From Planctomycetaceae bacterium (GTDB lineage Bacteria; Planctomycetota; PLA2): a stretch of 64,000 bases of DNA. Position 1 is the first letter of the stretch, and every line of letters begins with the position of its first letter. This document shows, piece after piece, positions 21,120 to 49,878 of the stretch. Made by a program: the position numbers and the translations under genes. The DNA lies in contig JBQTIG010000043.1 in NCBI GenBank assembly GCA_052388375.1, positions 6,865 through 70,864 on the forward strand. The letters are read 5' to 3'. The notes under the pieces were generated by a model. It did no database searches, was not told the origin of the DNA, and saw only the letters and a program-made list of their open reading frames with translations.

Positions 21120-21248
21120 GGCGGGCAGAGCCCACCAATTCGCGTGCCTTGCGGTGCGTCCGCCCGAAACGGGGGGTGGAGCGGCGCAAGCGGGCGCTTT
21201 TCCGCGCACCGGTCCGCGGGGGATTAGCGATCGGGCCGCGCGATTGGT

Positions 21249-21414: not shown

Positions 21415-21438
21415 GGATTCGCTTGCTAGGAGTGCGGC

Positions 21439-30420: not shown

Positions 30421-30870
30421 CTACTTCGTCTTCACGTCGATGCGACGGGGCTTCGACTCGCGGCTCTTGGAGACGGTGATCGTCAGGACGCCCTTCTCGG
30501 CGACCGCCTCGACATGGTCGGGATCGGTCGCGCCGGGGAAACTGATCGTGCGCTGGAACGCGCCGTGGCTCCGCTCGAGGCGGTGCCAGGTGCGCCCCTT
30601 CTCCTCCCGCTCCTCCTTCTTCTCGCCCCTAAGGACGAGGGTGTCGTTGGAGAGCGCGATCTCGATCTCCTTGGGATCGAGGCCGGGGAGTTCCGCCTTC
30701 ACGATGTAGCTCTCGGGGGTTTCTGCGACATCCACGCTGGGCGCCCAGACGTGACCGCCGGACGTGCCCCATCCCTCGTCGAAGAAGCTCTCGACGAGGC
30801 GATTCATGTCCTGCTGCAACGCCGAGAGGCCGGGCCGGGGGGCCCTCCAGGGGATCAGGTTCAGGGTCAT
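30421..30870 (-). CDS. Hsp20/alpha-crystallin small heat-shock protein
   Basis: Met83 of the track ORF with an AAGGAGG RBS. Motifs: PSVDVAETPESYIVKAELPGLDPKEIEIAL..DTLVLRGEKK...ERSHGAFQRTISFPG.....VEAVAEKGVLTITV. Confidence 0.9.
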   Translation of the reverse strand: MTLNLIPWRAPRPGLSALQQDMNRLVESFFDEGWGTSGGHVWAPSVDVAETPESYIVKAELPGLDPKEIEIALSNDTLVLRGEKKEEREEKGRTWHRLERSHGAFQRTISFPGATDPDHVEAVAEKGVLTITVSKSRESKPRRIDVKTK

Positions 30871-30921
30871 CGGTAGTCCTCCTTGTAATGCGGGAGAATC
30901 GAACCCCGCATCATGGACGGG

Positions 30922-30937
30922 AGCAAACGTCTTGCCA
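30922..30937 (-). promoter_or_regulatory. sigma-54-type promoter (-24/-12) upstream of hsp20
   Basis: The minus strand reads TGGCAAGACGTTTGCT, against the consensus TGGCAC-N5-TTGCW. The GG-N10-GC spacing is correct. The element lies about 50 nt upstream of the hsp20 ATG. Confidence 0.5.
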
Positions 30938-31060
30938 CGGCGGAACAGCGCGCCGAGTGGCGGGGGAGCAGCAGGCCACCCTGCCGATCCGGCAAGGCTG
31001 CCTGCAAGATTCGCAAGTCTGAGCGCGCAGGCTATCCTCCGGGGCCGGAGGAGGCGAACC

Positions 31061-31222
31061 ATGAGAATCCACTGCGACGTCTGCGGGCTCGAGATCTCCA
31101 AGGAGGAGGCCGTCACCTACGAAGAGGATGGCGAGATCCTCTACTACTGCTCGCAGGAGTGCTACGACGCCCGCGAGCCGCGCGAACCGGAACTCGGCGA
31201 TGAGCCGGACGGGTCCGTGTGA
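31061..31222 (+). CDS. small TRASH-type zinc-finger protein (53 aa)
   Basis: GGAGGAGG RBS. MRIHCDVCGLEI...YYCSQECY gives C-x2-C-x21-C-x3-C, matching the TRASH metal-binding pattern, followed by an acidic tail. Confidence 0.55.
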   Translation: MRIHCDVCGLEISKEEAVTYEEDGEILYYCSQECYDAREPREPELGDEPDGSV

Positions 31223-31385: not shown

Positions 31386-31401
31386 TGGAGCAGTTCTTGC
31401 A
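31386..31401 (+). promoter_or_regulatory. candidate sigma-54-type promoter upstream of the porin/Rieske/Nap operon
   Basis: TGGAGCAGTTCTTGCA has correct GG-N10-GC spacing and a perfect TTGCA -12 box, in a locally AT-richer stretch. It lies only about 12 nt before the porin ATG, so the transcript would be nearly leaderless, and that lowers my confidence. Confidence 0.35.
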
Positions 31402-31412
31402 TCACGGCGGGA

Positions 31413-32825
31413 ATGATCCGCGCCGCCTGGGTCGCCCTCTTGCTCGCTGCCGCAACCGACCCCGCAACGGCGGGGGATTTCGCCTCCGGGGTGGATCTCG
31501 AGCGCCGCAACGCCCTGCTCGAGGAGCGGGTGCGCAAGCTCGAAGCCGGAGCCATGGCGGAGGAGGTCGAACGCTATCTCGCGGATTATCCCGCGCAGCC
31601 CTTCACGGCGGAGGGGGCATCCTCCCTGCTCCCTGGGGGTCTGCGGCTGAAAATCTCCGGGGAGGCGCGCATCCGCGAGGAGGTGCAGCACCGTCTCTAC
31701 GCGCCGATGGATCCGGCGGGCAGCCGCAGCCTTGACTTCGCCCACATGCGCACACGGCTCCGGTTCGACATCGACGTCGACGACAACCTTGGCGTGGTCG
31801 TGGAGCTGCAGGACGTGAGGATCCTCGGCGAGGGGGGATCCACCACCGCCGACGCGGAGGGACTGGATCTGAAACGCGCGACGATCGTGGTCCGGCGCAT
31901 CGGCGGCCACCCGGTGACGGTCGAGGCGGGCCGCTTCGTGATGGCGTACGGGGACCAGCGGCACATCGGCCATCTGGAATGGTTCGATCAGGGGCGCACC
32001 TACGACGGTGCGCGCGTCGCCTGGGCGCCCGACTCCCTCTTCGTGGACCTGTTCGCCGTGCGGGTGCGCGAAACCGTGGTTCCGGACGACGACCAGACGC
32101 TTCTGGGCCTCTACGGGGGCACGAAGGGCTGGCGTTCCTGGCTCGACGGGGAGGCGTACGTGCTGGTGCTGAGCGACACCAAGCCCGCCGCGGGCGAACT
32201 CGGCCCGGGCGACACGCTCTTCTTCACCCTCGGACTGCGGCTGGCGGGCAAGCAGGAGGGGTGGGACTACGCCCTCGAGATCTCCTTCCAGACCGGGGAG
32301 CGCAACGGGGACGACCTCTCCGCATTCGCCTTCGCGTGGAAGGGCGGGCGGACGTTCACCGAGGCGCCGGGTACGCCGCGCGCCGGGCTCGAGATCGACT
32401 TCGCCACTGGGGACGACGATCCCACCGACGGGAAGAACCGCCAGTTCCAGACGCTGTTCCCCACCAACCACATCCACTACGGATTCGCCGACCTCCTGGG
32501 TTGGAGCAACCTCCTCGACCTGCGCGTCAGCCTGAGCGCGCGACCGCGCGAGAAGGTGCTCCTCACCCTTGATTTCCACCACTTCCGGCGCGTGGAGGAG
32601 CGAGGCGCCTGGATCAACGCGGGCGGCGCGCTCATCCGGCCGGGCGCCGCCGGGACCTCGAGCCATCTCGGGGACGAGATCGATTTCACGGTGACCTGGA
32701 CACCCAAGAAGTCGCTCACGATTCTCTTTGGCTGGTCGCTGTTCTTGCCGGGTGGGTTCGTCGCGCAGACCGGCGCCGACCCCACCGCCCGGTTTCTCTA
32801 TCTCGAGATACGCGTTACCTTCTGA
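31413..32825 (+). CDS. outer-membrane beta-barrel porin, alginate-export (AlgE-like) family
   Basis: Signal peptide MIRAAWVALLLAAATDPATA, an N-terminal coiled coil, then alternating beta-strand patterns and a C-terminal ...YLEIRVTF with terminal Phe. Confidence 0.65.
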   Translation: MIRAAWVALLLAAATDPATAGDFASGVDLERRNALLEERVRKLEAGAMAEEVERYLADYPAQPFTAEGASSLLPGGLRLKISGEARIREEVQHRLYAPMDPAGSRSLDFAHMRTRLRFDIDVDDNLGVVVELQDVRILGEGGSTTADAEGLDLKRATIVVRRIGGHPVTVEAGRFVMAYGDQRHIGHLEWFDQGRTYDGARVAWAPDSLFVDLFAVRVRETVVPDDDQTLLGLYGGTKGWRSWLDGEAYVLVLSDTKPAAGELGPGDTLFFTLGLRLAGKQEGWDYALEISFQTGERNGDDLSAFAFAWKGGRTFTEAPGTPRAGLEIDFATGDDDPTDGKNRQFQTLFPTNHIHYGFADLLGWSNLLDLRVSLSARPREKVLLTLDFHHFRRVEERGAWINAGGALIRPGAAGTSSHLGDEIDFTVTWTPKKSLTILFGWSLFLPGGFVAQTGADPTARFLYLEIRVTF

Positions 32826-32829
32826 GGCC

Positions 32830-33396
32830 ATGGAGGAGAGCATGAGCCACGATGCGAGTCGGCAAGGCCGCCGCCGCTTTCTCGGGACCGCCTCCGGCGT
32901 AGTCATGGCAGGGGGGCTCATCGGCGGCTACGGCACCTTCCTGGGCTACGCCGGCAGGTTTCTCTATCCCGTGGGCGGCGAGCCCCTCGGCTGGTTGTAC
33001 GTGGCGGAGGCGGCGCGCATCGCGCCGGGCGCCTCGCTCACCTACCGCACTCCCGCCGGCGCCACAGTGGTGATCGCGCGGCAGGGATCCACCGGCGAGG
33101 CCGCGGATTTCCTCGCCCTCTCCTCCACCTGCCCGCATCTCGGCTGCCAGGTGCACTGGGAATCGCAGAACAACCGGTTTTTCTGCCCCTGCCACAACGG
33201 CGTCTTCGACCCGTCGGGCAAGGGGATCGGCGGGCCCCCCGGGGACGCGGGCCAGAGTCTTCCGCGCTACCCGCTGCGGATCGAACGCGGGCTCCTCTAC
33301 ATCGAGGTGCCGCTGCGTACCCTCGCGGACGCGGGGGAGGGGGGCGGGGGCCTCACGCGGCCGGGCCATGACGCCTGCCTGAAGGGGCTCGCCTGA
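32830..33396 (+). CDS. Rieske [2Fe-2S] protein of a cytochrome bc/b6f-type complex (Tat signal)
   Basis: The twin-arginine motif RRRFLGTA is followed by a TM helix. The cluster boxes are CPHLGC and CPCHNGVF. Confidence 0.9.
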   Translation: MEESMSHDASRQGRRRFLGTASGVVMAGGLIGGYGTFLGYAGRFLYPVGGEPLGWLYVAEAARIAPGASLTYRTPAGATVVIARQGSTGEAADFLALSSTCPHLGCQVHWESQNNRFFCPCHNGVFDPSGKGIGGPPGDAGQSLPRYPLRIERGLLYIEVPLRTLADAGEGGGGLTRPGHDACLKGLA

Positions 33397-33397
33397 C

Positions 33398-34447
33398 ATG
33401 GGATCGGTCGCCGGATGGTTCCGGGAGCGGCTCCCGGTTTCGGGAGCCGCGCTGCGCGAGCTGACCAACGAACCGGTCCCCAACCATCTCAAGCGCTGGT
33501 GGTTCTGCCTGGGCGGGACGCCGCTCTACCTGTTCGTCGTCCAGATCGTGACGGGAATCCTGCTCGCCTTCTACTACCAGCCCGCGCCCTCCACCGCCTA
33601 CGAGTCGGTCCGCTTCATCACCGAGGAGGCCGCCTTCGGCTGGTACATCCGGGGCATCCACCGATGGGCCGCGACCTTCATGATCGCCGCCGTGATCCTG
33701 CACCAGATGCGGGTCTTCTTCACCGGAGCCTACCGCAAGCCGCGCGAGATCAACTGGATCGTGGGGATGTTCCTGTTGCTCTGCACGCTCTTGCTCGGCT
33801 TTTCCGGCTACAGCCTGGTCTTCGAGCAGTTGAGCTACTGGGGCGCCACGGTGGCCGGCAACATCACGGGGAGCGTCCCCCTGGTGGGCACCTTCCTCAA
33901 GCGACTCATGCTCGGCGGCGACGCGTACAACGAGCACACGCTCTCGCGGCTCTTCATCCTCCATGGGGCGGTGCTGCCGGTGACGATGGTCTTCCTCCTC
34001 GCGATCCACATCACGATCATCCGGCTGCAGGGCGTGACGGAGTTCCGGTTCGAGGACGAGCCTGCCGGAAAGCCGACCCACTTCCGCTTCTTCCCGGACC
34101 ACCTCTACACCGAGCTGATCCTGGGTCTGGTGCTCATGATCCTCCTGACCGCTTGCGCCACCATCTTCCCCGCCTCCATGGGGCCCCGGGCGGATCCCCT
34201 CTCCACGCCCGAGGCGATCAAACCGGAGTGGTTCTTCTACGTCGCGTTCCGCTGGCTCAAGCTGTTTCCCGGCACTCTGGCGGTGCTCTCCACGGGACTG
34301 ATCGTGTTCACGATGATCGTCTGGCCCTTCGTGGACGCCCGCATCCGCCGGCGCCGCCCCGATTCCGAGTTCAGCGTCGGGGTCGGCGTCGTCGCCGCCC
34401 TCTCCATCATCGGGCTGACCGTTTGGGAAGCCCTCGTCAAGCACTGA
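33398..34447 (+). CDS. cytochrome b (fused b6 + subunit IV type)
   Basis: WFRERL...KRWWFCLGG keeps the Cys found in the FYCLGG heme-ci site of cytochrome b6. His pairs occur in helix B (IHRWAA...ILHQMRVF) and helix D (ILHGAV...AIHITI). KPEWFFY is the PEWY-type Qo motif. Confidence 0.9.
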   Translation: MGSVAGWFRERLPVSGAALRELTNEPVPNHLKRWWFCLGGTPLYLFVVQIVTGILLAFYYQPAPSTAYESVRFITEEAAFGWYIRGIHRWAATFMIAAVILHQMRVFFTGAYRKPREINWIVGMFLLLCTLLLGFSGYSLVFEQLSYWGATVAGNITGSVPLVGTFLKRLMLGGDAYNEHTLSRLFILHGAVLPVTMVFLLAIHITIIRLQGVTEFRFEDEPAGKPTHFRFFPDHLYTELILGLVLMILLTACATIFPASMGPRADPLSTPEAIKPEWFFYVAFRWLKLFPGTLAVLSTGLIVFTMIVWPFVDARIRRRRPDSEFSVGVGVVAALSIIGLTVWEALVKH

Positions 34448-34457
34448 GGACCTCTCC

Positions 34458-36038
34458 ATGACCCTGCGCAGCAAGCAATTCCTGATCGGCGCCCTGGGCG
34501 GCGTCTTCCTCCTCTCGCTCGTGCTCGTGCAATGGCTGGAGGTGGTGAGGCGGCAGGAGGAGTCGGGGGCGGCGCCGCGCACGATCGCGGTTCCCGCCAG
34601 TTCCGCCTCCTGCGTCAGCTGCCACCGCGAAAGCTCCCCCGGCATCATCGACCACTGGATGGGGAGCACGCATGCCGAGAAGGGGGTGGGCTGCGTCGAG
34701 TGCCATCAGGCGGAGGGCGCGGACGCCGACGCCTTCTCGCACTACGGCGCGCTCATCGCGACGGTGGTGACGCCGCGGGACTGCGCGCGCTGCCACCAGC
34801 AGGAGGCGGACGAGTTCGGGCGGAGCCACCACGCCGCCGGAGGCAACATACTCGCCTCCCTCGACAACTACCTCGCCGAAACGGTGGAGGGCATGCGCGG
34901 CTTCTTCAATCCGCACGGCCCGACCCCCGGCCGGCAGGATTTCCAGGATGTGAACGGCTACGCCAGCGCCGTCCTTGGCTGCTTGCAGTGCCACGGGAGC
35001 AAGGTCGCGCTCCAGGCGACCGACGGCAGCCGCATCTCGGTGCACGATCTCAAGCCCGACAAGGACGGGAAGCCGACCAACCTGGACGCCGTGGCACGGA
35101 TCGCGAAGGGCACGGATGGTCGCCCGATATTCCATCCGGGCACCTGGCCCAATACCGGCATCGGGCGGCTGAACCTGGACGGGTCGCGCGGATCCTGCTC
35201 GGCCTGCCACTCCCGCCACGACTTCTCGCCCCGGCGTGCGCGCCAGCCGGAGAACTGCGGCAAGTGCCATCTGGGGCCCGACCATCCCCAGAAGGAGATC
35301 TACGAGGAGTCCAAGCACGGCGTCGCCTACCGCGACCTGCGCGAGCAGATGAACCTCGACTCCCCCACCTGGGTGCTCGGCGTCGACTACACCCAGGCGC
35401 CCACCTGCGCCACCTGCCACATGTCGGGCCACAAGCGCAACGGCGGCAAGATGACCCACGACCCCGGCGAGCGCATCTCCTGGACCAACCGTCCCCCCGT
35501 CAGCCTTCCGATGGACACCGACCTCAACCACGCGGTGGTGAAGGAGGCCGATCCCGCCAAGCGGCGGGCGCTCATCCACGACACCTGGCAGCAGAAACGC
35601 GAGCGCATGCAGCAGGTCTGCAGCCACTGCCACACGCCGGATTACATCACCGGCTTCTACAAGCAGTACGACGACCTGATCCAGCTCTACAACGAGAAGT
35701 TCGCCCGGCCGGGCACGTCCATCATGCAGGCGCTGCGCAACGCCAAGCTCATCACGCCGCCCGAGTTCGACGAGGAGATCGAGTGGACCTGGTTCTACCT
35801 TTGGCACCACGAGGGGCGGCGCGCGCGGCACGGCGCGTCGATGATGGCACCTGACTACACCCACTGGCACGGCATGTACGAGGTGGCCGAGCGCTTCTAC
35901 ATCGAGCTGATCCCGCAGGCGCGCGAGATCGCGGCGCACGCCCGCGCCGAGGGCAAGGTCGCGGAAGCCGACGCGGTGGAGGCGGCGATCGATGCGGTCC
36001 TCGCGAGGCCCGAGCACCGCTGGAAGGAGGGGAAGTAG
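34458..36038 (+). CDS. membrane-anchored octaheme cytochrome c, hydroxylamine-oxidoreductase (HAO) family
   Basis: N-terminal TM helix (FLIGALGGVFLLSLVLV). Eight CxxCH motifs are present (CVSCH, CVECH, CARCH, CLQCH, CSACH, CGKCH, CATCH, CSHCH). The HAO-like block CGKCHLGPDHPQKEIYEESKHGVAYR is also there. The C-terminus reads WHHEGRRARHGASMMAPDYTHWHG. Confidence 0.85.
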   Translation: MTLRSKQFLIGALGGVFLLSLVLVQWLEVVRRQEESGAAPRTIAVPASSASCVSCHRESSPGIIDHWMGSTHAEKGVGCVECHQAEGADADAFSHYGALIATVVTPRDCARCHQQEADEFGRSHHAAGGNILASLDNYLAETVEGMRGFFNPHGPTPGRQDFQDVNGYASAVLGCLQCHGSKVALQATDGSRISVHDLKPDKDGKPTNLDAVARIAKGTDGRPIFHPGTWPNTGIGRLNLDGSRGSCSACHSRHDFSPRRARQPENCGKCHLGPDHPQKEIYEESKHGVAYRDLREQMNLDSPTWVLGVDYTQAPTCATCHMSGHKRNGGKMTHDPGERISWTNRPPVSLPMDTDLNHAVVKEADPAKRRALIHDTWQQKRERMQQVCSHCHTPDYITGFYKQYDDLIQLYNEKFARPGTSIMQALRNAKLITPPEFDEEIEWTWFYLWHHEGRRARHGASMMAPDYTHWHGMYEVAERFYIELIPQAREIAAHARAEGKVAEADAVEAAIDAVLARPEHRWKEGK

Positions 36039-36039
36039 C

Positions 36040-38406
36040 GTGGCGGAGAGCGATCGCCGCGAGTTCCTGCGCCGCTGCGGTATCGCCGCTGCCGGCATCG
36101 CAGCGTTCTCCTGCGGCGACCGCGAGGAGGCGGAGGAGATCGCCCGCCGGCAGGCCGCCGGAGGGCCCTATCCCGCCGACCTCTCCTGGGGCAAGGCCGC
36201 GTGCCGCTACTGCGGCACCGGCTGCAGCGTCGAGGTGGGCGTGCACGAGGGGAAGGCGGTTGCGGTGCGCGGCGACGCCGCGAGCCCGGTGAACAAGGGC
36301 CTGCTCTGCGTGAAGGGCTACCACCTGCCCGCCATGCTCTACGGCAAGGACCGGCTGCTTTTCCCGATGCTGCGGCTGGCGGACGGGTCGCAGAAGCGCA
36401 TTGCGTGGGACGAGGCCCTCGACCTCGTGGCACGCAAGTTCGCCGGGGCGCTGCAGGATCACGGCCCCGACGCCGTGGCGGTCTACGGCTCGGGGCAGTG
36501 GACGGTCTTCGACGGCTATGCCGCGCTCAAGTGGGTGAAGGGCGGCATGCGGTCCAACCAGCTGGAACCCAACGCGCGCCTCTGCATGGCGAGCGCGGTC
36601 ATGGGCTACATGACGCAGTTCCAGAGCGACGAACCCATGGGCTGCTACGACGACTTCGAGCTGGCCGACGACTTCGTCTTCTGGGGCCACAACGCCGCCG
36701 AGATGCACCCGGTGCTCTTCAGCCGCATGCTGGAGCGCAAGCGGTCCAACCCCGGCGTACGGCTCGTCGATCTCGCCACGCGGCGGACGCCCACCAGCGA
36801 CTACTGCGACCTCTACGTCGAATTCCGCCCGGGCAGCGACCTCGCCCTCGCCAACGGCATCCTCCACCTGCTGCTGAAGCAGGACAAGGTCGACCGCGCC
36901 TTCGTGGCGGAGAACGTCGTCTTCAAGCGCGGCGTCGAGGAGCTGAAGGAGATCGGCTACGGCTGCTTCGGCGAGCAGGCGGAGCGCTACACCTTCCAGG
37001 ACAAGGCCACCGACTCCTCCCTGGAGGAGCTGGCGAAGTTCCTGGAGGACTACGACCCCGCCACCGTGAGCCGCATCAGCGGCGTCCCCGAGGCGCAGCT
37101 GCGCCTCTTGGCCGACCTCTACGGCGACCGCAACCGCAACACCGTCTCCACCTGGTGCATGGGGGTCAACCAGCACACCCGCGGCACCTGGATGAACAAC
37201 CTCATCACCGACCTGCACCTGATCACCGGCAAGATCTCCCGCCCGGGCAGCAATCCGCTCAGCGTGACGGGCCAGCCGTCGGCCTGCGGCACCGTGCGTG
37301 AGGTGGGGACGCTCGCCAACCGGCTCCCCGCCGACATGGTGGTCACCAATCCCGAACACCGCGCCCTGGCGGAGAAGATCTGGGGGCTCCCCGCGGGAAC
37401 GATCAACCCCAAGCCCGGCGACCACGCCGTCGACATGTTCCGCGCGTTCGCGCGCGGCGACATCAAGACCATGTGGGTGCAGACGACCAACCCCTGGGTC
37501 ACGATCCCCAACCTGCACCGCATCGACCGGAAGCCGGGGGACGGCCGCTTCCTCGTGGTGAGCGACATCTACCCCACGCCCACCACGGACGTGGCCGACC
37601 TCGTGCTTCCGGCCGCCGCCTGGATCGAGCGCGAGGGGATGTTCGGCAACACGGAGCGGCGCACGCAGCACTGGGACAAGCTCCTCGAGCCCCCGGGCGA
37701 GGCGCGCGAGGACGCCTGGCAGATCATCGAAGTGGCCAAGCGCATGGGCATGGGCCATCTCTTCCCGTGGCCCGAGAACGACTGGCACAAGCCGATGTTC
37801 GAGGAGTACCGGAGCTTCACCCTCGGCCACGGCAAGGACCTCGCCTCCTACGACCAGCTTCGCGCCACCCACGGCGGCCTCCGCTGGCCCGTGGTGGAGG
37901 GCCGGGAGACCCGCTGGCGCTACGCCGCCGGCCACGACCCCTACGTGAAAAAGCCCAAAGGGGTCCACTTCTACAAGGCCAAGGGGTATGGCGAGAAGGC
38001 CGCCTTCTGGCTGCGCCCCTACCACCCGCCGGCGGAGGAGCCCGATGCGGAGTACCCGTTCTGGCTCTGCACCGGGCGCGTGCTGGAGCACTGGCATACC
38101 GGCTCCATGACCCGGCGCGTGAAGCAGCTGCACCAGGCGGTGCCCGGGGCCTACGTCGAGGTGAACCGCGCCGACGCGATGAAGATGGGGCTCAAGAGCG
38201 GGGACAAGGTGCGCGTGAAGAGCCGGCGCGGGAGCGTCGTTCTCCCCGCCCTGGTGGACGGCCGCGGGAAGCCGCCGCGGGGATCGCTGTTCGTGCCCTT
38301 CTTCGACGAGGGGCTGCTCATCAACCGGGTGACCCTCGACGCCATGTGCAACATCAGCAAGGAGCCGGACTACAAGAAGTGCGCGGTGAGGCTCGAACGC
38401 GCGTGA
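36040..38406 (+). CDS. napA: periplasmic nitrate reductase catalytic subunit
   Basis: GTG start 1 nt after the HAO-family stop. It has a Tat signal (SDRREFLRRCGIAAAG), a [4Fe-4S] motif (CRYCGTGCSV...LCVKG) and the Mo-ligand context PNARLCMASAV. The C-terminus reads EPDYKKCAVRLERA. Confidence 0.92.
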   Translation: MAESDRREFLRRCGIAAAGIAAFSCGDREEAEEIARRQAAGGPYPADLSWGKAACRYCGTGCSVEVGVHEGKAVAVRGDAASPVNKGLLCVKGYHLPAMLYGKDRLLFPMLRLADGSQKRIAWDEALDLVARKFAGALQDHGPDAVAVYGSGQWTVFDGYAALKWVKGGMRSNQLEPNARLCMASAVMGYMTQFQSDEPMGCYDDFELADDFVFWGHNAAEMHPVLFSRMLERKRSNPGVRLVDLATRRTPTSDYCDLYVEFRPGSDLALANGILHLLLKQDKVDRAFVAENVVFKRGVEELKEIGYGCFGEQAERYTFQDKATDSSLEELAKFLEDYDPATVSRISGVPEAQLRLLADLYGDRNRNTVSTWCMGVNQHTRGTWMNNLITDLHLITGKISRPGSNPLSVTGQPSACGTVREVGTLANRLPADMVVTNPEHRALAEKIWGLPAGTINPKPGDHAVDMFRAFARGDIKTMWVQTTNPWVTIPNLHRIDRKPGDGRFLVVSDIYPTPTTDVADLVLPAAAWIEREGMFGNTERRTQHWDKLLEPPGEAREDAWQIIEVAKRMGMGHLFPWPENDWHKPMFEEYRSFTLGHGKDLASYDQLRATHGGLRWPVVEGRETRWRYAAGHDPYVKKPKGVHFYKAKGYGEKAAFWLRPYHPPAEEPDAEYPFWLCTGRVLEHWHTGSMTRRVKQLHQAVPGAYVEVNRADAMKMGLKSGDKVRVKSRRGSVVLPALVDGRGKPPRGSLFVPFFDEGLLINRVTLDAMCNISKEPDYKKCAVRLERA

Positions 38407-38957
38407 GGGGGGCGGGGGCGCTCCTCGTCTGCCTGTTGGCCGCGGGATGCGGCGAGCCGCGCCTCGGGCCCTCCGTGGCGGTGCCGGGACGCGCGGGGGC
38501 GGTCAAGACCTCCGCCGCCGACCGCGCGGAGCGGCGCGCCTACGACGGCGCGCCCCCCGTCATCCCCCACGAGAACTTCGGCATGGGCTGCGTGAACTGC
38601 CACTCCAAGGAGGGGTTGCACCTCCCTGACATCGGCTTCGCTCCCCCCATGCCCCACGAGGTGACGCCGGGACTGAGCGCCCTGAGCCGCTGCACGCAAT
38701 GCCACGTCTTCCGCGAGACGCGGGAGCTCTTTCGCGAGAACGGATTCCTTGGGCTGCGCCAGGACCTGCGCCGCGGCCGGCGCCTGCACCTCCTCGCCCC
38801 CCCCGTGATGCCCCACCCCCTCTTCATGCGCGAAAATTGCTCCGCCTGCCACGACGGACCCGCGGCCCGGGAGGAGGTGCGCTGTTCCCACCCCGAGCGG
38901 GCGCGCTGCCAGCAGTGCCACGTCGCGGAGACCGCCACGGACGAGTTCGTCCGCTGA
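38403..38957 (+). CDS. tetraheme cytochrome c lipoprotein, tandem NapB-like
   Basis: The GTG overlaps the napA stop (GTGA). A lipobox is present (LLAAGC). Two successive units have the pattern APPV[IM]PH...CxxCH...CxQCHV (CVNCH/CTQCH, then CSACH/CQQCH). Confidence 0.75.
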   Translation: MRGAGALLVCLLAAGCGEPRLGPSVAVPGRAGAVKTSAADRAERRAYDGAPPVIPHENFGMGCVNCHSKEGLHLPDIGFAPPMPHEVTPGLSALSRCTQCHVFRETRELFRENGFLGLRQDLRRGRRLHLLAPPVMPHPLFMRENCSACHDGPAAREEVRCSHPERARCQQCHVAETATDEFVR

Positions 38958-38999: not shown

Positions 39000-41900
39000 G
39001 TGGATGTGGAGTCATCGAGCGGATCGTTCCCTCCGGCGCCCTCGGTGCACGAGTACCGAGTCCTGCTCTTCACCGACGTCGTCGGCTCGGTGGCCCTGCG
39101 CAGGCGCGTCGGGGATCTGCGCTACGAACAGGAGATCAAGGGAGCGCACGACGCCCTGTTCCATGCCGCGATCGGACCCGACGTCCTCGGCGTGGAAGAT
39201 ACGGGCGACGGTTTCCTGGCCAGCTTCCGGTCGGTGCCGGAGGCGGTGGCCGGCGCCCTGAGGTTCCAGCAGGCGCTCCGGAACCGATCCTGGAGCGCCG
39301 AGGCGCCGGCGGTCCGCACGGCGATCCACGCCGGAGAGGTCCTCGTCGCCGCCTCGCGCAGGGTGAAGGGTGGCCCCGTCGAGATCTGCAGCAGGGTCAT
39401 GGACCTCGCCGCCGGCGGCCAGATCCTGCTCACGCGCCACGTCTTCGACGACGCGCGGCAATACGTGCGGGAGCACCCCGCCGCCCCCGGCGCGAGCCAG
39501 CCACCGCCCCTCCGATGGCTGGCCCACGGACCCTACCGCTTCAAGGGGATCGACGACGACCCCCTCGAGGTCTTCGAGGTGGGCGCCGCCGGTCTCGCGC
39601 CGTTCCGCCCGCCGCCCGATTCCGGAAAGGGACGCAGGGTCGTGGGCCCCGACGAAGAGGCGATGCTCGGCTGGCGGCCCGCGGCGGAGCAGGAGATCCC
39701 GGGTCGCGCGGGCTGGATCCTTGTCCGCAAGCTGGGGGAAGGGGGCTTCGGCGAGGTCTGGCTGGCGAGGCAGCCCCGCACCGGGGATGCGCGCGTCATG
39801 AAGTTCTGCTTCGACGCCGATCGGCTGCGCTCATTCCGGCGTGAGATGACGCTCTTCCTGCTGCTGCGGGACGAGCTGGGGGATCGGCGCGACATCGCGC
39901 GGCTCCTGGAAGTGCAACTGGAGAAGTCCCCCTACCTGCTGGAGAGCGAGCTAACGCCGGAGGGCGACCTGCGCGCCTGGAGCGATCGGCAGGGGGGGAT
40001 CGGCCTGGTGCCGCTCGCCACGCGGCTTGAATTCGTCGCCCGCACGGCGGACGCAGTCGCGGCCGCGCACCGCGTGGGGGTGCTCCACAAGGACTTGAAG
40101 CCGGCCAACATCCTGGTCTATTTCGACGAAGAGGGCGTGCCCCGTCCCCGGATCAGCGACTTCGGCATCGGCATCCTCACCGATCGCACGCTGCTTGAGC
40201 GGTTGGGGCTCAAGGGTTCCGGCTTCACCGCGACGCAGCTCACGGAGAACGAGTCGAGCCGGACGGGGACGCGCCTGTACGCGCCCCCCGAGGCGCTCTC
40301 CGGCATGCCCTTCACGACGCTGGGCGACATCTATGCCCTCGGCGTCCTGCTCTTCCAGATGGTCGTGGGGGATCTCGACCGCCCCATGGCCGTGGGCTGG
40401 GAGCGCGCCCTTGAGCCGGCGATCCCCGACCCCGACCTGCGCGGTCTCCTACGCGACGACCTCGCGGCGATGGTGGATGTCGACCCGGAGCGCCGCCCGG
40501 GTTCGGCGGCGGCGGTGGCGGAAGGGATCCGGACGCTGGAGGAGCGGCGGGAGGGGCGCCTGCGCGAGCACGCGGCCGCAACGGCCCTGGCGCGACGGCG
40601 GCGCGTCCGCCGGCGCGTCGTGGCGGGCGGGACCTTCCTGGTTCTGGCGCTGGCCGTGGCGGGCCTGTTCCTGGGACGCGAGCGCGCGCTCCGCGCCGAA
40701 GCGGAGCGGGAGAGGGAGGCCGCCCAGGAGCTGGCCCTCTTCATGCTGAACGACCTCGTGCCGCGCGCGCGGGAACTGGGCCGCCTCGACATCCTCGAGG
40801 CGGCGGCGCGCAAAGCCGCGGCGTTCTACACGAGGACGCCGCTGGAAAGCGCCCCCCCCGAGACGCTGCGCGATCGCGCCTTTGCTCTCGTGCAGGTCGG
40901 GTCCGTGCTCGAGGCGCAAGGGGACGACCGCGCCGCGCTCGAGACGTTCGCGTCGGCCCGGCGGGTGATCCACCAGTATCTCGCCTTCGCTCCCACGAGC
41001 ATTCGCGGCAAGGGGGTGCTCGTTCAAGTCCTCATGGCCACAGGTCGCGCCCACGCCATGCTGGGTTGGACGGAACAGGCCCTGGCTCCTTTTTTCGCGG
41101 CGCTCGATGCCGCCCGGGAGATATCTGGGGCGGTTCCGAACGCCTCGCCCTACGAGCGCATGGTCGGGCTCGCCAGCGTGGAGGCGGCCGGCATGCTCCT
41201 GGCGCTGGGTCGCCACGACGAGGCGGCCAGCCTCCTCCAGTCCGGAGTCGAGATCCTTGGACGATTGGCGGAAACCGGGGAGCCCACGGCGGTCTCGGAG
41301 GGTGGATACGCCCGAGCCGAGCGCGGTAGACTGCAGATCGCGAGCGGGCATCTTGCAGCAGCCCTGGAGGATCTGCGCGCAGCGGTGGACGCGGGCCAGC
41401 GTGCCCTTGCGGCCGCGCCCGGAAGCGCACCGCTGAAGGCGGACCTCCTCCTCTACCGCGAGGGACTCGGCGACGCCCTGTCACGATCCGGGGACGCGGA
41501 GGGAGCGCGGGCGCAGTACGCCGCTCACCTCGAGCTGGCCGAGCGGCTGCTGGAAGCCTCGGCCGGACACCCGGGCCACCGCCGGGCGCGCGCCCTCGCC
41601 CGCCAGCGATTGGCGCGGATCGCCATGGAGCAGGGCGAACAGGAGCGCGCCCTCGCCCTGCTCGAGGCGGCAGGAGCGGAGCTGGAGGAGCTCGTCGCCG
41701 CGCATCCACGCAACCTGAACGCGGTGAGCAGCCTCGCCACCAATCATGATCGCATCGGGATGACGCACCTCGCGCAACGCCGTTTCCTCGACGCGCGGCG
41801 GCGCTTCGAGGCGGCCCTCGCCTTGGAGGCGATTCTCCAGGAGTACCGCCCTCGCGGCGTGAGCCACAGGCGCGCGGTCTGCATCGCTCACCTGGGTGAG

Positions 41901-43256
41901 GTTGCCCTGAACCTGGACGAGAAGGAAGAGGCGTTGCAAAGGTTCCGTGAGTCCCTCGCGATGACCGAAGGCCACGCGGATCGCGACTCGCGGGACAATG
42001 CTGCGGTCTGTCACGAAAGGATCGGCTGCGTTCAAAAGTCCTCAGCCGACCTTTCGGGCGCGCTGGAGAGCTTCCGCCACTGCCTCGCTCTCCGGGAGTC
42101 GTTGGCCACCGATCCCGATGACGGGCAGGCGCAAGAAGCCCTGGCCTCGGCGCGGACGAATCTGGGGGACGTCCTGCGTGCCAGGGGAGAGTTGGATTCC
42201 GCGCTCGAGCTCTATCTCGCAGCGCACGCGGTGCGGACCCGACGGAACGAGCCCTTGGCGCTTTCCATCGCGGAGGAGCGTCTCGGCCTGCTCCACCGCG
42301 CCCGGCGCGACCTCCCCGCGGCGCTGCCCTACTTCGAAAGATCTCTCGCAAGAATCAGGGAGTTCGCCGCCGCGGGACCGAAGGAGATCGCGCGCCTCGA
42401 TGCCCTCGAGATCTCGCTGAAGCAGGTCGCCGGCGTCCTGCTCGATCTCGGTGAGACCGAGCGCGCGCTGCCTCTCTACGAGGAAGCGGTTGCGACCATG
42501 CGCCGGATCCTCGTCGATGTTCCGGAGGATCGTCCCATGCTCCTGCGCCTGGCGATCGCCCTCGACAGGCTGCGGAACGTCCAAGCCGCGCGCGATCACC
42601 ACACGGAGGCGCTCGCGGCGGCGCGGGAGGCGCTCGATGTGGTCGCACGCGTCTGCGCGTTGGCACCCGAAGACCGCGTCGCGCACTTCAACCTGGCCCG
42701 CGGCCACCAGGCGGTGGGCGAGACGGCGGAGGACGCGGGTGAGTTCGCTGCCGCACTCGGTGGCTACCGCGAGGCGCTTTCGATCGCGCGCGGCCTCGGG
42801 GGGGAAAGCGCGTCGACCATCCTCGGCGAGATCGGCGATCGCGAGCGCGGCCTGGCGCTGCTCCTTGGTGAGTCGCAGCCGGAGTCGGCCACCGACCACG
42901 GCATCCTGGGCGACACTCTCCACCGAGCGGGTCTGTATCTCCGCGCCGTCGCCGCCTTCCGCGAGGCGCTGCGCGACGAGGCGGTCCGCGCCGACCTCGA
43001 CGCCTCGCCGCTCTACAACGGCGCGTGCGCCGCTTCTCGCGCCTCGGCCGCGACGCAGGGCGAGGAGGCCGACGCGTTGCGGCGCGAAGCGCTGGCCTGG
43101 CTCGCGGAGGATCTTCGCCGCAGGCGCGAGCGGGCCGCGGCGGACCCGGGCGCCCAGGATGAGGCGCTTGCCGCGCATCTCGCCCACGCGCGGGTGGGCG
43201 ACCCCGATCTCGCCCCCCTCCGCGACCTCCCCGAGTTCGCGCGGCTGTTCGAGTGA
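39000..43256 (+). CDS. class III adenylate/guanylate cyclase - Ser/Thr protein kinase - TM - TPR multidomain signalling protein
   Basis: Cyclase motifs (VLLFTDVVGS, DTGDGFLASF, RTAIHAGEV). Hanks kinase motifs (GEGGFGEVWLA, VMKF, HKDLKPANIL, SDFGIG, APPE). One TM helix (FLVLALAVAGLFL) is followed by about 750 aa of TPR-like helical repeats. Confidence 0.8.
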   Translation: MDVESSSGSFPPAPSVHEYRVLLFTDVVGSVALRRRVGDLRYEQEIKGAHDALFHAAIGPDVLGVEDTGDGFLASFRSVPEAVAGALRFQQALRNRSWSAEAPAVRTAIHAGEVLVAASRRVKGGPVEICSRVMDLAAGGQILLTRHVFDDARQYVREHPAAPGASQPPPLRWLAHGPYRFKGIDDDPLEVFEVGAAGLAPFRPPPDSGKGRRVVGPDEEAMLGWRPAAEQEIPGRAGWILVRKLGEGGFGEVWLARQPRTGDARVMKFCFDADRLRSFRREMTLFLLLRDELGDRRDIARLLEVQLEKSPYLLESELTPEGDLRAWSDRQGGIGLVPLATRLEFVARTADAVAAAHRVGVLHKDLKPANILVYFDEEGVPRPRISDFGIGILTDRTLLERLGLKGSGFTATQLTENESSRTGTRLYAPPEALSGMPFTTLGDIYALGVLLFQMVVGDLDRPMAVGWERALEPAIPDPDLRGLLRDDLAAMVDVDPERRPGSAAAVAEGIRTLEERREGRLREHAAATALARRRRVRRRVVAGGTFLVLALAVAGLFLGRERALRAEAEREREAAQELALFMLNDLVPRARELGRLDILEAAARKAAAFYTRTPLESAPPETLRDRAFALVQVGSVLEAQGDDRAALETFASARRVIHQYLAFAPTSIRGKGVLVQVLMATGRAHAMLGWTEQALAPFFAALDAAREISGAVPNASPYERMVGLASVEAAGMLLALGRHDEAASLLQSGVEILGRLAETGEPTAVSEGGYARAERGRLQIASGHLAAALEDLRAAVDAGQRALAAAPGSAPLKADLLLYREGLGDALSRSGDAEGARAQYAAHLELAERLLEASAGHPGHRRARALARQRLARIAMEQGEQERALALLEAAGAELEELVAAHPRNLNAVSSLATNHDRIGMTHLAQRRFLDARRRFEAALALEAILQEYRPRGVSHRRAVCIAHLGEVALNLDEKEEALQRFRESLAMTEGHADRDSRDNAAVCHERIGCVQKSSADLSGALESFRHCLALRESLATDPDDGQAQEALASARTNLGDVLRARGELDSALELYLAAHAVRTRRNEPLALSIAEERLGLLHRARRDLPAALPYFERSLARIREFAAAGPKEIARLDALEISLKQVAGVLLDLGETERALPLYEEAVATMRRILVDVPEDRPMLLRLAIALDRLRNVQAARDHHTEALAAAREALDVVARVCALAPEDRVAHFNLARGHQAVGETAEDAGEFAAALGGYREALSIARGLGGESASTILGEIGDRERGLALLLGESQPESATDHGILGDTLHRAGLYLRAVAAFREALRDEAVRADLDASPLYNGACAASRASAATQGEEADALRREALAWLAEDLRRRRERAAADPGAQDEALAAHLAHARVGDPDLAPLRDLPEFARLFE

Positions 43257-44624: not shown

Positions 44625-47450
44625 TCACCGCCGCAGGGAGGCCAGCCAGCTCTCCCCGGTGTCGCCCCGGAGGAAGCCGCCGCCCTTGAGAAGGATTTCC
44701 GCGCGGCCGTCGCCATCCAGGTCGGCCGCCGCCACCGCCGCGACGCGGAACCCCGGCTCCACGGGCGCGCCGCGCACCGGGCGGTAGGCCGCACCCTCGC
44801 GCAGAAGCGCCCACCAGGGAAGCGCCGCGCAGGGATCGTCGCCGCCGCAGGCCACGACGAGGTCGGTATCCCCGTCGCCGTCCAGGTCCGCCTCGCACCA
44901 CGCCGTCGCGCCGGGGGGGAGCCCCTCGCAGACCGCGGGCGGATCGAGGGCGAAGGCGGCCGCCGCCTCGAATCGGTAGGGCCGCTGGAACGCGGGCTGT
45001 ACGCTCGGCACGCGCGGAGCCGTGCGCACCTCCATCGACGGCAGCAGGACCGCGTGACCTCCGACGCGGGCGTCGAGCCGGCCGTCGCCGTTCGCGTCGG
45101 CGAAAGCCGCATCGGCGCCGTCCATGCGCGGGAGCGGAAGCCGCCTCATGACCCACCGACCCTCGTCGGGCAGATCGAGCAGCCGCGCCAGGAGATCGCG
45201 TTCGTCGGCGCGTCGCCGCGCCGTGTCGCCCTCCTCGAGCACGTCGGGGGGAGCCGTGCCCGGGCGGTGCCCCAGCAGCCGCGTGGCCGCATCGAGGTCG
45301 CCCAGCCGCACGCGGCAGAGCGCCGCGAGCGCGGCGGCCCTGGGATTGGCGGCGATCTGCTCGAGGGTGCGCGCCGCCATCTCCAGCTTGCCCTGAAAGA
45401 GCAGGATCCGCCCCTCGTCGAACACGGCGCCGGTCTCGTCGCGGTTCAGCTTGCGCGCGAACGCGATCTCCTGCAACGCGGCATCGAGATCGAGCATCGC
45501 GGGGCGACGCGGATCCGACAGGATGGCGGCGCGCAGCAGGTGGCCGCGCGGCAGCATCGGCTCGAGCCGCAGCAGGCGCAGGCAGAGAGCCAGCCCCTCC
45601 TCGGGCTCCACGAGCATGGCGAGGTTGTAGAGGGCGGTCCCGTTCTCTGGATCGAGGCGCAGGACTTCGCGGTACAACGCGGCGGCCCGCTGCTGCTCCC
45701 CCGCGGCGAGCGCGTCCCCCGCCTCGTCGAGCTGCGGCCCGAGGGCGCGCGAATCCACCTCGCGCACGACGAGCCTTTGGCCGGCGGGAACGCCCCTGCG
45801 CTCCACGACGGCGCCGGACGGGAACCGCACCACGACCCGCTCGGCACGCGCGGCACGGCCCAGGCCGAAGTGGAGCTCGTGCGGCCCCGAAGAGAGGTAG
45901 GAGACCTTGGCCCCCACCTGCTGGACCTCGCGGCCGCCTCCCGCCTCAACGGTCACCCGCGCCCCGTAGCCGAACGGGTTAGGGGCCGACCCGCGGACCT
46001 CCACGACCAGGTGGCTTCCCTTCGTCTCCGTCTCATTGAGGAGCAGCAGCGCGGGCCCACCGTGGACGACGACCACGACGTCGAGATCGCCGTCCCCATC
46101 CACGTCGCCCAGGGCGCCGCCGCGGCCGACGATCGGCCGTGCCAGCGCCTCGCCGGCGCGGGGCGCGAGATCGAAGAATCGCTTGCCGCCGTTCCAGAAG
46201 ATCTGGAGCGGCATCGGCACCAGGAATTGCGGCGAACCCGGCTCCTCGAAGGTGCTTCCGTTCACGACGACGAGGTCGGGGCGACCGTCGCGATCGAGAT
46301 CACCGAAGTCGCACGCCCAGCCGACGAGCATGCGACTCGGCGGCCCGAGGTAGCTCTCCATCGCGGCGTCGCGGAAGAAGAAGTCCCCCTCCTCCTTGAG
46401 GTAGAGGGTGTTCTCCTCGGAGATCCAGTGCGTGATGAAGATGTCGAGGTCGCCGTCCCGGTCCGGGTCCCCCACCGCGAGCCCCATCGCGCCACGCCAG
46501 TCGGCGGTGCAGGAGCGGTGCGTCGCATCCTCGAACGGCTCCCCCCGCCGTCCCCGGAACATGGCGTTGTCCGACACGTCGTTGGCCACGTAGAGGTCCA
46601 GCACGCCGTCCCCGTCGAAGTCGGCGAAGACCGCTTGCAGGCTCCTCCCGCCGGGGTTGTCGACCCCCATCGCGCGCGCGGCCTCGGTGAAGCGGCTGTT
46701 CCCGTCGTTGAGGTAGAGCAGATTGGGCTCCGCCGGATAGGCGGAGGGGTTGAGGGTGACCGGCAGCGTGTGGGAGCCGCGTCCGCTCCCGCTCGCTTCG
46801 ACCGATTCGTCGAAGCGGACGTACCGGCAAGCATAGAGATCGAGGTCGCCGTCCCCGTCCGCGTCGCCCCAACAGGCGCCGGCGCTGAACCCTCCCCCGC
46901 CCACGCCCGCCTCCTCGGTCACGTCGGTGAAGTTGCCCGCCCCGTCGTTGCGAAGGAGGAGGTTGCGACCGTATCCGGTGAGGTAGACATCCATGTCCCC
47001 ATCGGCGTCGAAATCCGCGGCGGCCACGCCCATTCCTTGGAGAGAGGGAAGGGGAATCCTGTTTTGTTCGAAGACGCAACCGCCGCGGTTGATCCAGAGT
47101 TCGGGGGCGGGGGGCTCGCTCCCCCTGGGCCCGCAGTTGGCGAAGAGCAAGTCGAGGAGCCCGTCGCCGTTGAAGTCCTCCAGCGCGACTCCCGAGCCCA
47201 TGTCCTCGGGGAGGCGATGCGTCCGGACGCCGGGAAAGTGGCGGAACGGGAGCTCGATCCGTGCGAATCGGAGGCGCGGGGCGGACGCGGGAGCCGTCGC
47301 GGCCCACTCGTCGGTCACGCCGAGCCCGAGCCCGCCCGGGGGCGCGGCGCGCTCCCGCGGGAGGAGCGTGAGCGCGAGTCCCGTTCCCGCGACGAGGCTG
47401 AGCGCCGCGAACAGCCCGTAGCCGAGGAGGAGCTTCCGCTTCTTCTTCAC
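44625..47450 (-). CDS. FG-GAP/VCBS repeat + ASPIC/UnbV (CRTAC1-like) protein with TPR region
   Basis: The GTG at 47450 overlaps the cytochrome stop (GTGA). After a signal/TM (LLLGYGLFAALSLVAG) come repeated DFNGDGLLD, DADGDMD, DGDGDLD and DRDGDLD calcium-binding FG-GAP motifs. An UnbV-like segment follows (GYGARVTVEAGGREVQQVGAKVSYLSSGPHELHFGLG), then TPR helices and further FG-GAP repeats. Confidence 0.8.
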   Translation of the reverse strand: MKKKRKLLLGYGLFAALSLVAGTGLALTLLPRERAAPPGGLGLGVTDEWAATAPASAPRLRFARIELPFRHFPGVRTHRLPEDMGSGVALEDFNGDGLLDLLFANCGPRGSEPPAPELWINRGGCVFEQNRIPLPSLQGMGVAAADFDADGDMDVYLTGYGRNLLLRNDGAGNFTDVTEEAGVGGGGFSAGACWGDADGDGDLDLYACRYVRFDESVEASGSGRGSHTLPVTLNPSAYPAEPNLLYLNDGNSRFTEAARAMGVDNPGGRSLQAVFADFDGDGVLDLYVANDVSDNAMFRGRRGEPFEDATHRSCTADWRGAMGLAVGDPDRDGDLDIFITHWISEENTLYLKEEGDFFFRDAAMESYLGPPSRMLVGWACDFGDLDRDGRPDLVVVNGSTFEEPGSPQFLVPMPLQIFWNGGKRFFDLAPRAGEALARPIVGRGGALGDVDGDGDLDVVVVVHGGPALLLLNETETKGSHLVVEVRGSAPNPFGYGARVTVEAGGGREVQQVGAKVSYLSSGPHELHFGLGRAARAERVVVRFPSGAVVERRGVPAGQRLVVREVDSRALGPQLDEAGDALAAGEQQRAAALYREVLRLDPENGTALYNLAMLVEPEEGLALCLRLLRLEPMLPRGHLLRAAILSDPRRPAMLDLDAALQEIAFARKLNRDETGAVFDEGRILLFQGKLEMAARTLEQIAANPRAAALAALCRVRLGDLDAATRLLGHRPGTAPPDVLEEGDTARRRADERDLLARLLDLPDEGRWVMRRLPLPRMDGADAAFADANGDGRLDARVGGHAVLLPSMEVRTAPRVPSVQPAFQRPYRFEAAAAFALDPPAVCEGLPPGATAWCEADLDGDGDTDLVVACGGDDPCAALPWWALLREGAAYRPVRGAPVEPGFRVAAVAAADLDGDGRAEILLKGGGFLRGDTGESWLASLRR

Positions 47451-49845: not shown

Positions 49846-49878
49846 ACCCAGTCTCGTGCCGGGCAAGGAGTTAGAGCG

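Follow-up and report, generated by a model that had tools for sequence, protein, structure and literature searches.

A Rieske/cytochrome b module with a membrane-anchored HAO-family octaheme cytochrome, encoded with periplasmic nitrate reductase in Planctomycetota and other phyla

Six head-to-tail genes around napA

We analysed a stretch of 64,000 nucleotides (nt) from a Planctomycetaceae bacterium (GenBank assembly GCA_052388375.1, contig JBQTIG010000043.1, positions 6,865 to 70,864 of the forward strand), hereafter the window, in which six genes on the same strand, at 31.4-39.0 kb, code for a porin, a Rieske protein, a cytochrome b, an octaheme c-type cytochrome, the periplasmic nitrate reductase NapA and a tetraheme lipoprotein. 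The window has a GC content of about 70%, and all positions are counted from its first letter. The features of the locus are the following.

31386-31401, + strand: sigma-54-like motif TGG-N9-TTGCA (TGGAGCAGTTCTTGCA), read from the sequence, 12 nt before the porin ATG; tentative
31413-32825, + strand: porin; Pfam Alginate_exp, E = 1.4e-56; signal peptide
32830 (or 32842) to 33396, + strand: Rieske protein; twin-arginine translocation (Tat) motif; CPHLGC and CPCHNG boxes
33398-34447, + strand: cytochrome b, 349 amino acids (aa); Cytochrome_B and C-terminal petD part
34458-36038, + strand: octaheme cytochrome; eight CXXCH motifs; one transmembrane (TM) segment, residues 5-31
36040 (GTG) to 38406, + strand: NapA; Tat signal; NCBIfam NF010055 score 954.8, cut-off 904
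38403-38957, + strand: tetraheme lipoprotein; four CXXCH motifs; lipobox LAAGC

An earlier note, made from the DNA alone, had described this gene order and its head-to-tail packing, and both hold: each identity is backed by family matches or motifs, and the coordinates reproduce intergenic gaps of 4, 1, 10, 1 and -4 nt. The first gap becomes 16 nt if the Rieske gene starts at 32842, the start predicted independently on a short Logan contig with an identical octaheme, where the starts of the cytochrome b, octaheme, NapA and tetraheme genes agree with those given above. Of the limits proposed for the region, the end at 38957 was retained, and the beginning at 31386 was not as a gene start, there being no start codon at this position and the porin ATG lying at 31413. 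A single terminator-like match was found across the operon region, within the cytochrome b gene, as compared with an expectation of 3.1 from shuffled sequence.

The note had also remarked on the lack of cytochrome c1/f, NapC, NapGH and NapD in the window. This is borne out by Pfam or NCBIfam scans of about 50 of its open reading frames (ORFs), practically every plausible one, none of which corresponds to NapC/NrfH, NapD, NapG/H/F or cytochrome c1/f. In addition, all six frames were scanned for ORFs that contain two or more CXXCH motifs, and no small NapC-like tetraheme was found. Rfam and tRNA scans of the window detected no molybdenum cofactor riboswitch or other RNA element.

Conservation and identity of the encoded proteins

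The occurrence of the locus was surveyed in one genome per GTDB species. A relative of the octaheme was found in at least 591 species genomes, and the best 80 of these at least 591 loci, in which the octaheme is 69-75% identical, were examined; they come from Planctomycetota, Gemmatimonadota, Thermoanaerobaculia/Acidobacteriota, Anaerolineales, Binatia, Myxococcota, Krumholzibacteriota, Eiseniibacteriota and other groups. The cytochrome b gene lies directly upstream of the octaheme gene in all 80 loci, and so does the Rieske gene wherever the contig extends that far. The genes for NapA and the tetraheme follow directly downstream, in the same orientation, in 40 of the 76 informative loci (Nap+), while 36 of the 76 have no Nap there (Nap-). 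Complete or near-complete genomes with the five-gene cluster include OZ245006.1, CP070812.1, CBDCXR010000004.1 and CBDCYF010000005.1. The earlier note had named uniqueness of the arrangement to this contig as an outcome that would speak against its proposal; the triad of Rieske protein, cytochrome b and octaheme is instead present in related loci of many phyla. All-against-all clustering of the ORFs in the flanks, including those of the 40 Nap+ loci, identified no recurrent napD, napF, napG, napH, napC or nitrogen assimilation genes; the flank genes that do recur (porin, tandem universal stress protein (Usp), Rrf2 regulators, PAS kinases and response regulators) each do so in at most 10 loci. 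Since the flanks are otherwise unconserved, the genes for the Rieske protein, cytochrome b, octaheme, NapA and tetraheme can be regarded as a unit.

Pairwise distances of cytochrome b, octaheme and NapA are correlated among the 26 complete Nap+ loci (r = 0.78-0.81), the correlation between NapA and cytochrome b being as tight as that between octaheme and cytochrome b, and from these correlations of about 0.8 we conclude that the five genes travel as a unit. In the octaheme tree, Nap+ loci are in part intermixed with Nap- loci, a pattern implying that the Nap module was gained or lost more than once. In addition, octaheme identity across phyla is about 73%, as compared with less than 60% for PurF of the same organism beyond its own clade, which suggests that the unit either spread laterally or is strongly constrained. 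The best named relatives of this PurF (70-76% identical) all stem from Planctomycetota MAGs.

In a more distant relative, the octaheme (49% identity) is still encoded beside cytochrome b. Conversely, a JGI contig (3300027828; L082, 8001-11653) carries a relative with 52% identity over the C-terminal half only, without Rieske/cytochrome b, followed by a 661-aa multiheme protein fused to a cytochrome b561-type (Ni_hydr_CYTB) domain. From these two cases, the Rieske/cytochrome b partnership appears to be a trait of the TM-anchored clade, with the wider octaheme family pairing with other quinol-oxidising modules. Two loci, from genomes binned as Chitinophaga (L014) and Candidatus Kuenenia (L019), have near-identical octahemes nested among those of Planctomycetaceae; both are probably mis-binned, and the 'Kuenenia' label would not denote an anammox orthologue. 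In three Planctomycetota loci (L054 4009-4515, L065 7423-8001 and L080 917-1292), an ORF of about 150 aa with a globin domain lies between the cytochrome b and octaheme genes (Pfam Globin E = 4e-7 and 2e-4 for two of the three, those scanned), which hints at sensing or handling of NO or O2 inside the module.

The Rieske protein (Pfam E = 1.1e-10) carries, besides the two cluster boxes, the twin-arginine motif RRRF. Cytochrome b is a fusion of cytochrome b6 and subunit IV with about seven TM helices (Cytochrome_B, E = 2.6e-49, and Cytochrom_B_C), and its best NCBIfam matches are cytochrome b6 and ExtP-like. The b-heme ligands His88, His102, His189 and His204 are invariant in 68 cytochrome b orthologues, as are P276, E277 and W278 of the Qo motif PEWF (residues 276-279), the fourth residue being F, Y or W. 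Both this motif and the heme-ci cysteine to which the earlier note had drawn attention are found in the window protein, the latter as Cys37 in WWFCLGG (codon 33506-33508). The heme-ci position is occupied by Cys in 40 and by Ala in 28 of the 68 orthologues, Ala being found, for instance, in all Gemmatimonadota, and the cysteine is unassociated with the presence of Nap (Fisher p = 0.32); given this split, heme ci appears to be dispensable for the module. A mono- or diheme subunit of the c1/f type, as expected of a bc1 or b6f complex, is encoded neither in the operon nor in the window, and the TM-anchored octaheme, to judge by the gene order, occupies its place. In three Nap+ loci (L018 2332-3283, L021 7215-8172 and L058 1605-2567), several additional TM helices are inserted between the b6 and subunit-IV parts, and the N-terminus of the octaheme diverges in sequence yet remains a TM helix.

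The octaheme cytochrome matched IhOCC (4QO5, E = 1.2e-44), Kustc0458 (6H5L, 1.9e-23), NeHAO (4FAS, 8e-15) and 6HIF (2e-14) in the PDB. A profile search gave stronger matches (IhOCC, 6e-53), and HDH and kustc1061 are also among the closest solved relatives. A TvNiR-type ONR or NrfA identity was rejected (E = 0.07 or weaker), and the protein is assigned to the HAO/IhOCC clade, as the earlier note had anticipated together with its N-terminal TM anchor. An AlphaFold2 (AF2) model was built from a 40-sequence alignment and run without hemes, with a mean predicted local distance difference test score (pLDDT) of 68.5 and residues 248-324 below 50; with this model, the top six Foldseek hits were the same proteins as those of the sequence search. 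The N-terminal helix (residues 3-36) was modelled at a pLDDT of about 90, and K6, L13, F17, S20, L21, Q25, E28 and R31 within the TM helix are invariant in the 40 sequences. Because a cleaved signal peptide would not show such residue conservation, this helix would be a retained, interacting TM anchor.

The distal-pocket pair Asp275-His276 (GPDHP) is invariant in the 40 octahemes and aligns with 'GVDH' of NeHAO and 'GPDHP' of Kustc0458, which argues for a catalytic heme pocket rather than a pure wire. At the position of NeHAO Tyr334, the family has an invariant Arg345. With regard to the tyrosine that forms the heme cross-link, the C-terminal phmmer and profile alignments stop short of the C-terminus of NeHAO; an estimate from the heme 8 offset, as opposed to a structural alignment, would place it near residues 494-501, and the octaheme has no Tyr past residue 481, which suggests that the cross-link tyrosine is missing. 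Cross-link-free HAO homologues are reductases: εHao acts on nitrite and hydroxylamine, and Kustc0458 converts nitrite to NO (PMC8042395).

NapA was compared with models of related molybdoenzymes. Besides exceeding the NF010055 cut-off, it scored 930.1 with TIGR01706, marginally under the cut-off of 930.55, and far lower with the Fdh and Nas models (433 and 366). Its best PDB matches are of the NapAB type (3ML1_A, E = 7e-243; 2NYA, 5e-235; 1OGY_A, 6e-230), ahead of the monomeric Desulfovibrio NapA (1e-176) and of Fdh (1e-104 or weaker), and its N-terminus contains the Tat signal SDRREFLRR and the 4Fe-4S motif CRYCGTGC…C (Pfam Molybdop_Fe4S4, E = 1.2e-16). The model scores and the PDB ranking rule out Nas or Fdh, a placement outside NapA that the earlier note had listed as evidence against its proposal, and we classify the molybdoenzyme as a genuine NapA of the NapAB type.

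The start codon of the tetraheme gene overlaps the napA stop by 4 nt, the two genes being translationally coupled. Four CXXCH motifs and two APPV(I/M)PH motifs are invariant in the tetraheme family across 31 loci, and its profile matches NapB structures (1OGY_B, E = 2e-4; 3ML1_B, 2.8e-4; 1JNI, 2e-3). Its score with the Pfam NapB model is 18.6 bits, under the cut-off of 25.1, and its two halves align with each other (hhalign probability 99%, E = 4e-18). The resemblance of the repeat unit to NapB extends to the pattern PPxIPH…CxxCH…CxxCH. These NapB matches, together with the mutual homology of the halves, identify the protein by its sequence as a NapB-like diheme unit duplicated in tandem, distinct from canonical NapB, in keeping with its earlier description as a NapB-like lipoprotein. 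It is presumed to be the electron donor docked to NapA.

Electron path, alternatives and known systems

We propose a membrane complex of the Rieske protein, the b6-type cytochrome b and the octaheme, in which the TM helix of the octaheme substitutes for cytochrome c1/f, and the formation of such a complex can be regarded with good confidence. Quinol oxidation would take place at the Qo site (PEWF), with one electron passing via the Rieske cluster into the heme chain of the octaheme and the second being recycled via the b hemes in a Q-cycle, so that electron delivery to the periplasm would be electrogenic. The octaheme itself is most likely a reductase, which would convert nitrite to ammonium, by analogy with εHao/IhOCC, or to NO, by analogy with Kustc0458 (PMC8042395); NO and NH2OH are further candidate substrates. 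Because 36 loci have the triad without Nap, it would be a terminal enzyme in its own right and not merely a wire to Nap, and we consider its catalytic function probable. In about half of the lineages, NapA and the lipid-anchored tandem-NapB tetraheme would be an add-on that draws electrons from the complex, either via the octaheme hemes or directly from the Rieske protein, and we lean towards such a wiring of Nap to the Rieske/cytochrome b-octaheme complex. NapA would then reduce nitrate to nitrite, which the octaheme would consume, and the porin would admit the anion across the outer membrane. That the locus constitutes one respiratory unit for periplasmic nitrate reduction, with the full chain from quinol through the octaheme to NapA, is the reading that we slightly favour. 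Its most far-reaching form, a single membrane supercomplex of Rieske/cytochrome b, anchored octaheme and NapA-NapB2 that carries out the eight-electron reduction of nitrate to ammonium with energy conservation by the Q-cycle, seems unlikely to be true as a whole.

Comparable arrangements are known. In the anammox R/b-3 complex, Rieske/cytochrome b is likewise encoded with an HAO-like octaheme, kuste4574. The R/b-3 cluster has extra subunits, among them more multiheme proteins and proteins resembling NAD(P) oxidoreductases, and to our knowledge it contains no Nap. The 70% GC content argues against the organism of the window being an anammox bacterium. According to the earlier note, Rieske/cytochrome b complexes with an HAO-like partner had been described for anammox bacteria alone, in which they lack Nap; this is contradicted by reports on Caldithrix, Nitrospira, Nitrospina and Methylomirabilis. 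In Caldithrix abyssi, one locus (Cabys_2564-2556) contains nap genes, Rieske/cytochrome b and εHao, and electron transfer from Rieske/cytochrome b to tetraheme/NapA and εHao, possibly with generation of a proton-motive force, was proposed by its authors (Kublanov et al. 2017, PMC5317091). Going by the published description, that locus resembles the one in the window in having NapA, a tetraheme, Rieske protein, cytochrome b and an HAO octaheme free of the cross-link tyrosine, and in lacking NapC and NapB; it differs in the presence of napG, napH and napF, in a tetraheme that is NapM and precedes napA, and in gene order, whereas the window has no NapGH/F, a tandem NapB-like lipoprotein after napA and a conserved TM anchor on the octaheme.

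Similarly, in Nitrospira (N. moscoviensis and N. japonica) an octaheme termed 'ONR/OCC' is preceded by two Rieske/cytochrome b genes (PMC6311188, PMC6606698, PMC12342949), which are co-expressed with it during growth on nitrite (PMC6606698), and a similar operon structure was reported in Nitrospina gracilis, Kuenenia stuttgartiensis and Methylomirabilis oxyfera (Lücker et al. 2013, PMC3578206). By description, the Nitrospira module shares with ours the Rieske protein, the cytochrome b and an atypical HAO-family octaheme, proposed as a quinol-linked periplasmic nitrite reductase; in contrast, it has no Nap attached, an assimilatory role was proposed for it, and NapC replaces Rieske/cytochrome b in some Nitrospirales. 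The cluster members of our octaheme, retrieved by a 50%-representative search and look-ups for a link to the published Nitrospira, Kuenenia or Caldithrix proteins, have generic names only. The principle of a NapC-less Nap fed electrogenically by a proton-motive Rieske/cytochrome b complex, which would be that of the window, is known from Campylobacter jejuni, in which genetic evidence showed that Qcr is needed for Nap activity, with H+/2e- = 2 (Garg, Taylor & Kelly 2018, PMC6195509). The C. jejuni system differs in that Qcr has a conventional diheme c subunit and is encoded away from nap, napGH is present and there is no HAO-type octaheme.

As regards the octaheme, IhOCC of Ignicoccus hospitalis (4QO5) and the HAOr Kustc0458 (6H5L) share with it the eight hemes and the HAO fold, and are cross-link-free nitrite/hydroxylamine reductases (PMC8042395). 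In the sequence alignment, IhOCC has Asp-Val where the window octaheme family has the HAO-type Asp-His pair; Kustc0458 was isolated and crystallised with a diheme partner; and an association with Rieske/cytochrome b is not described for either in their cited literature. We found no description of the five-gene unit in Planctomycetota, Gemmatimonadota or Acidobacteriota in the open-access literature. Genome-predicted Rieske/cytochrome b-octaheme clusters, including one with nap, have thus already been described from genomes, and what differs here is the minimal architecture without NapGH/F/D, the tandem-NapB lipoprotein, the TM anchor of the octaheme, the leading porin and the breadth over uncultured phyla.

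Different scenarios might also explain the locus. The genes might represent independent systems, a quinol:nitrite reductase triad next to a NapA/tetraheme pair fed by a NapC/CymA-type, NapGH or alternative complex III (ACIII) donor encoded elsewhere, with clustering reflecting only the co-regulation of consecutive pathway steps. The triad does not need Nap, being found without it in 36 of 76 loci, the visible part of the genome is 64 kb, and the comparable Caldithrix locus has napGH, a route that its authors kept open (PMC5317091). We nevertheless consider such independence rather unlikely, given that an alternative quinol dehydrogenase is neither encoded in the window nor a recurrent neighbour of the 40 Nap+ loci, that 1 nt separates the octaheme stop from the napA start, that NapA distances follow cytochrome b as closely as octaheme distances do, and that Nap without NapC can rely on a Rieske/cytochrome b complex in C. 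jejuni (PMC6195509). A related scenario is that the octaheme is a non-catalytic multiheme replacement of c1/f, which only passes electrons on from the Rieske protein to partners that are either soluble or lipid-anchored, for example the NapB-like tetraheme. Its TM anchor and its gene position, that of the c-type subunit, would suit such a role, and multiheme c subunits had been proposed before for Rieske/cytochrome b complexes of anaerobes (cited in PMC5317091). The invariance of the HAO distal-pocket Asp-His pair in 40 sequences, the fact that the closest solved relatives (IhOCC, Kustc0458, HAO and HDH) are all enzymes, the 36 loci without any adjacent acceptor and the expression of the Nitrospira octaheme when nitrite must be reduced (PMC6606698) make a pure relay improbable.

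A mainly assimilatory or detoxifying unit, which would reduce nitrate or nitrite to ammonium for uptake or scavenge NO or NH2OH, would agree with the Nitrospira octaheme and Rieske/cytochrome b being switched on when nitrite is the sole nitrogen source and repressed by ammonium (PMC6606698, PMC12342949), as well as with the Rrf2 (NsrR-like) regulators in 7 loci and the globin gene within the module in 3. Against assimilation, glnA, amtB, PII and nas genes do not recur in the flanks, and the neighbours in the window are Hsp20, Usp and CBS proteins, sigma-54 regulators and further respiratory multihemes; moreover, with a Q-cycle donor energy is conserved regardless of what becomes of the product, so that this scenario, which we judge to be quite unlikely, overlaps with the respiratory unit proposed above. 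Least probable by far is an oxidative octaheme, working on hydroxylamine or NO like the HAO of nitrifiers with the complex running in reverse. Public annotations of relatives do read 'hydroxylamine oxidoreductase/dehydrogenase', whereas the nearest solved structures, IhOCC and Kustc0458, belong to reductive enzymes free of the cross-link, the estimated cross-link position has no Tyr, NH2OH is not oxidised by cross-link-free HAOs (PMC8042395), and a nitrate reductase as partner would make no sense.

Several points weigh against the respiratory unit that we favour. The locus and every orthologue are known from genes alone, and the view is limited to 64 kb, so that NapC, NapGH, ACIII or another donor could be encoded elsewhere. 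Known HAO-family enzymes are trimers and Rieske/cytochrome b complexes are dimers, a joint stoichiometry that does not match simply. The maturation genes for NapD and NapF are missing from the locus, and must therefore be elsewhere or be dispensable. The catalytic core of the AF2 octaheme model has a pLDDT below 50 and gives no model support for a five-coordinate heme 4, while the absence of the cross-link tyrosine depends on the heme 8 offset. Finally, correlated distance matrices would also result from a shared species phylogeny.

Textbooks describe Nap as non-energy-conserving, as neither NapC nor NapGH is proton-motive. If NapA is indeed tied to a Q-cycle complex, the reduction of periplasmic nitrate, and probably of nitrite, would be electrogenic, and yield estimates would change. 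At 90% identity, the octaheme family forms at least 7,977 clusters in the protein database, mostly without a name or called 'hydroxylamine oxidoreductase/dehydrogenase' or 'multiheme c-type cytochrome'; under such annotations its carriers, which belong to phyla abundant in soils, sediments and groundwater, escape surveys of nitrite reducers by nrfA, onr, nirK or nirS. Indeed, in a global survey of ammonifiers, homologues of HAO and IhOCC served solely to control for false positives (PMC10716430). If the octaheme produces ammonium, a large guild of ammonifiers would have been missed by nrfA/onr surveys, and if the supercomplex were real, it would be a widespread route of respiratory ammonification, with at least 591 genomes at species level distributed over Planctomycetota, Gemmatimonadota, Acidobacteriota and other phyla. 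The product decides on which side of the divide between dissimilatory nitrate reduction to ammonium (DNRA) and denitrification these organisms stand, ammonium meaning nitrogen retention and NO nitrogen loss. Being compact and free of accessory nap genes, the five-gene unit also lends itself to heterologous expression and to cryo-electron microscopy of a Rieske/cytochrome b complex with a catalytic c-type subunit.

Porin, candidate promoter and neighbouring genes

The porin, a candidate anion (nitrate/nitrite) channel, matches PF13372 over nearly its full length (profile positions 3-385 of 395). With its most likely start, ATG 31413, it has a signal peptide. The earlier note had seen in the leading porin a hint of dedicated anion import, and a homologue of the Alginate_exp porin adjoins the module in 11 of 40 Nap+ loci as compared with 1 of 36 Nap- loci (Fisher p = 0.004), an association driven by one phylum, Gemmatimonadota, with 7 of the 11 loci, the loci not being independent. 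In the sigma-54-like motif upstream of the porin, the GG-N10-GC spacing agrees with the sigma-54 consensus, and two sigma-54 activators are encoded in the window (17853-19451 and 49810-51246). Since such a motif precedes the Rieske gene in only 1 of 70 related loci, it is tentatively considered window-specific or a chance match; if real, it would imply a nearly leaderless transcript.

Upstream of the operon lie CBS-domain, two tandem-Usp and Hsp20 genes (19539-22350; 30421-31116), and tandem Usp (9 loci) and Rrf2/NsrR-like regulators (7 loci) recur beside the module in other genomes. The Usp, Rrf2, CBS and Hsp20 neighbours suggest a hypoxia or NO stress regulon. Downstream, a Ser/Thr kinase of 1418 aa with TPR repeats (39000-43256, + strand) begins 43 nt past the tetraheme gene, and a DDE_3 transposase is located at 5511-6608 (+ strand).

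Two further respiratory clusters were identified in the window. A complete periplasmic type II DMSO-reductase-family enzyme, Nxr/pNar-like, is encoded at 55895-63093 (+ strand), 17 kb from the Nap operon. It comprises a 1142-aa Tat alpha subunit (TIGR03479), a 90-aa ORF, an iron-sulfur beta subunit (TIGR03478), a NarJ-like chaperone (TIGR03482) and a gamma subunit in which a part with two c hemes is fused to an EB_dh heme-b domain. A second multiheme cluster, at 47447-54248, includes a membrane protein of 794 aa with 4-5 hemes on the minus strand, the PAS/sigma-54 activator at 49810-51246 and two octahemes, one with TPR/HEAT repeats (51250-53103), the other a short second HAO-like protein of 382 aa (53100-54248) that matches PF13447 and, partially, HDH.

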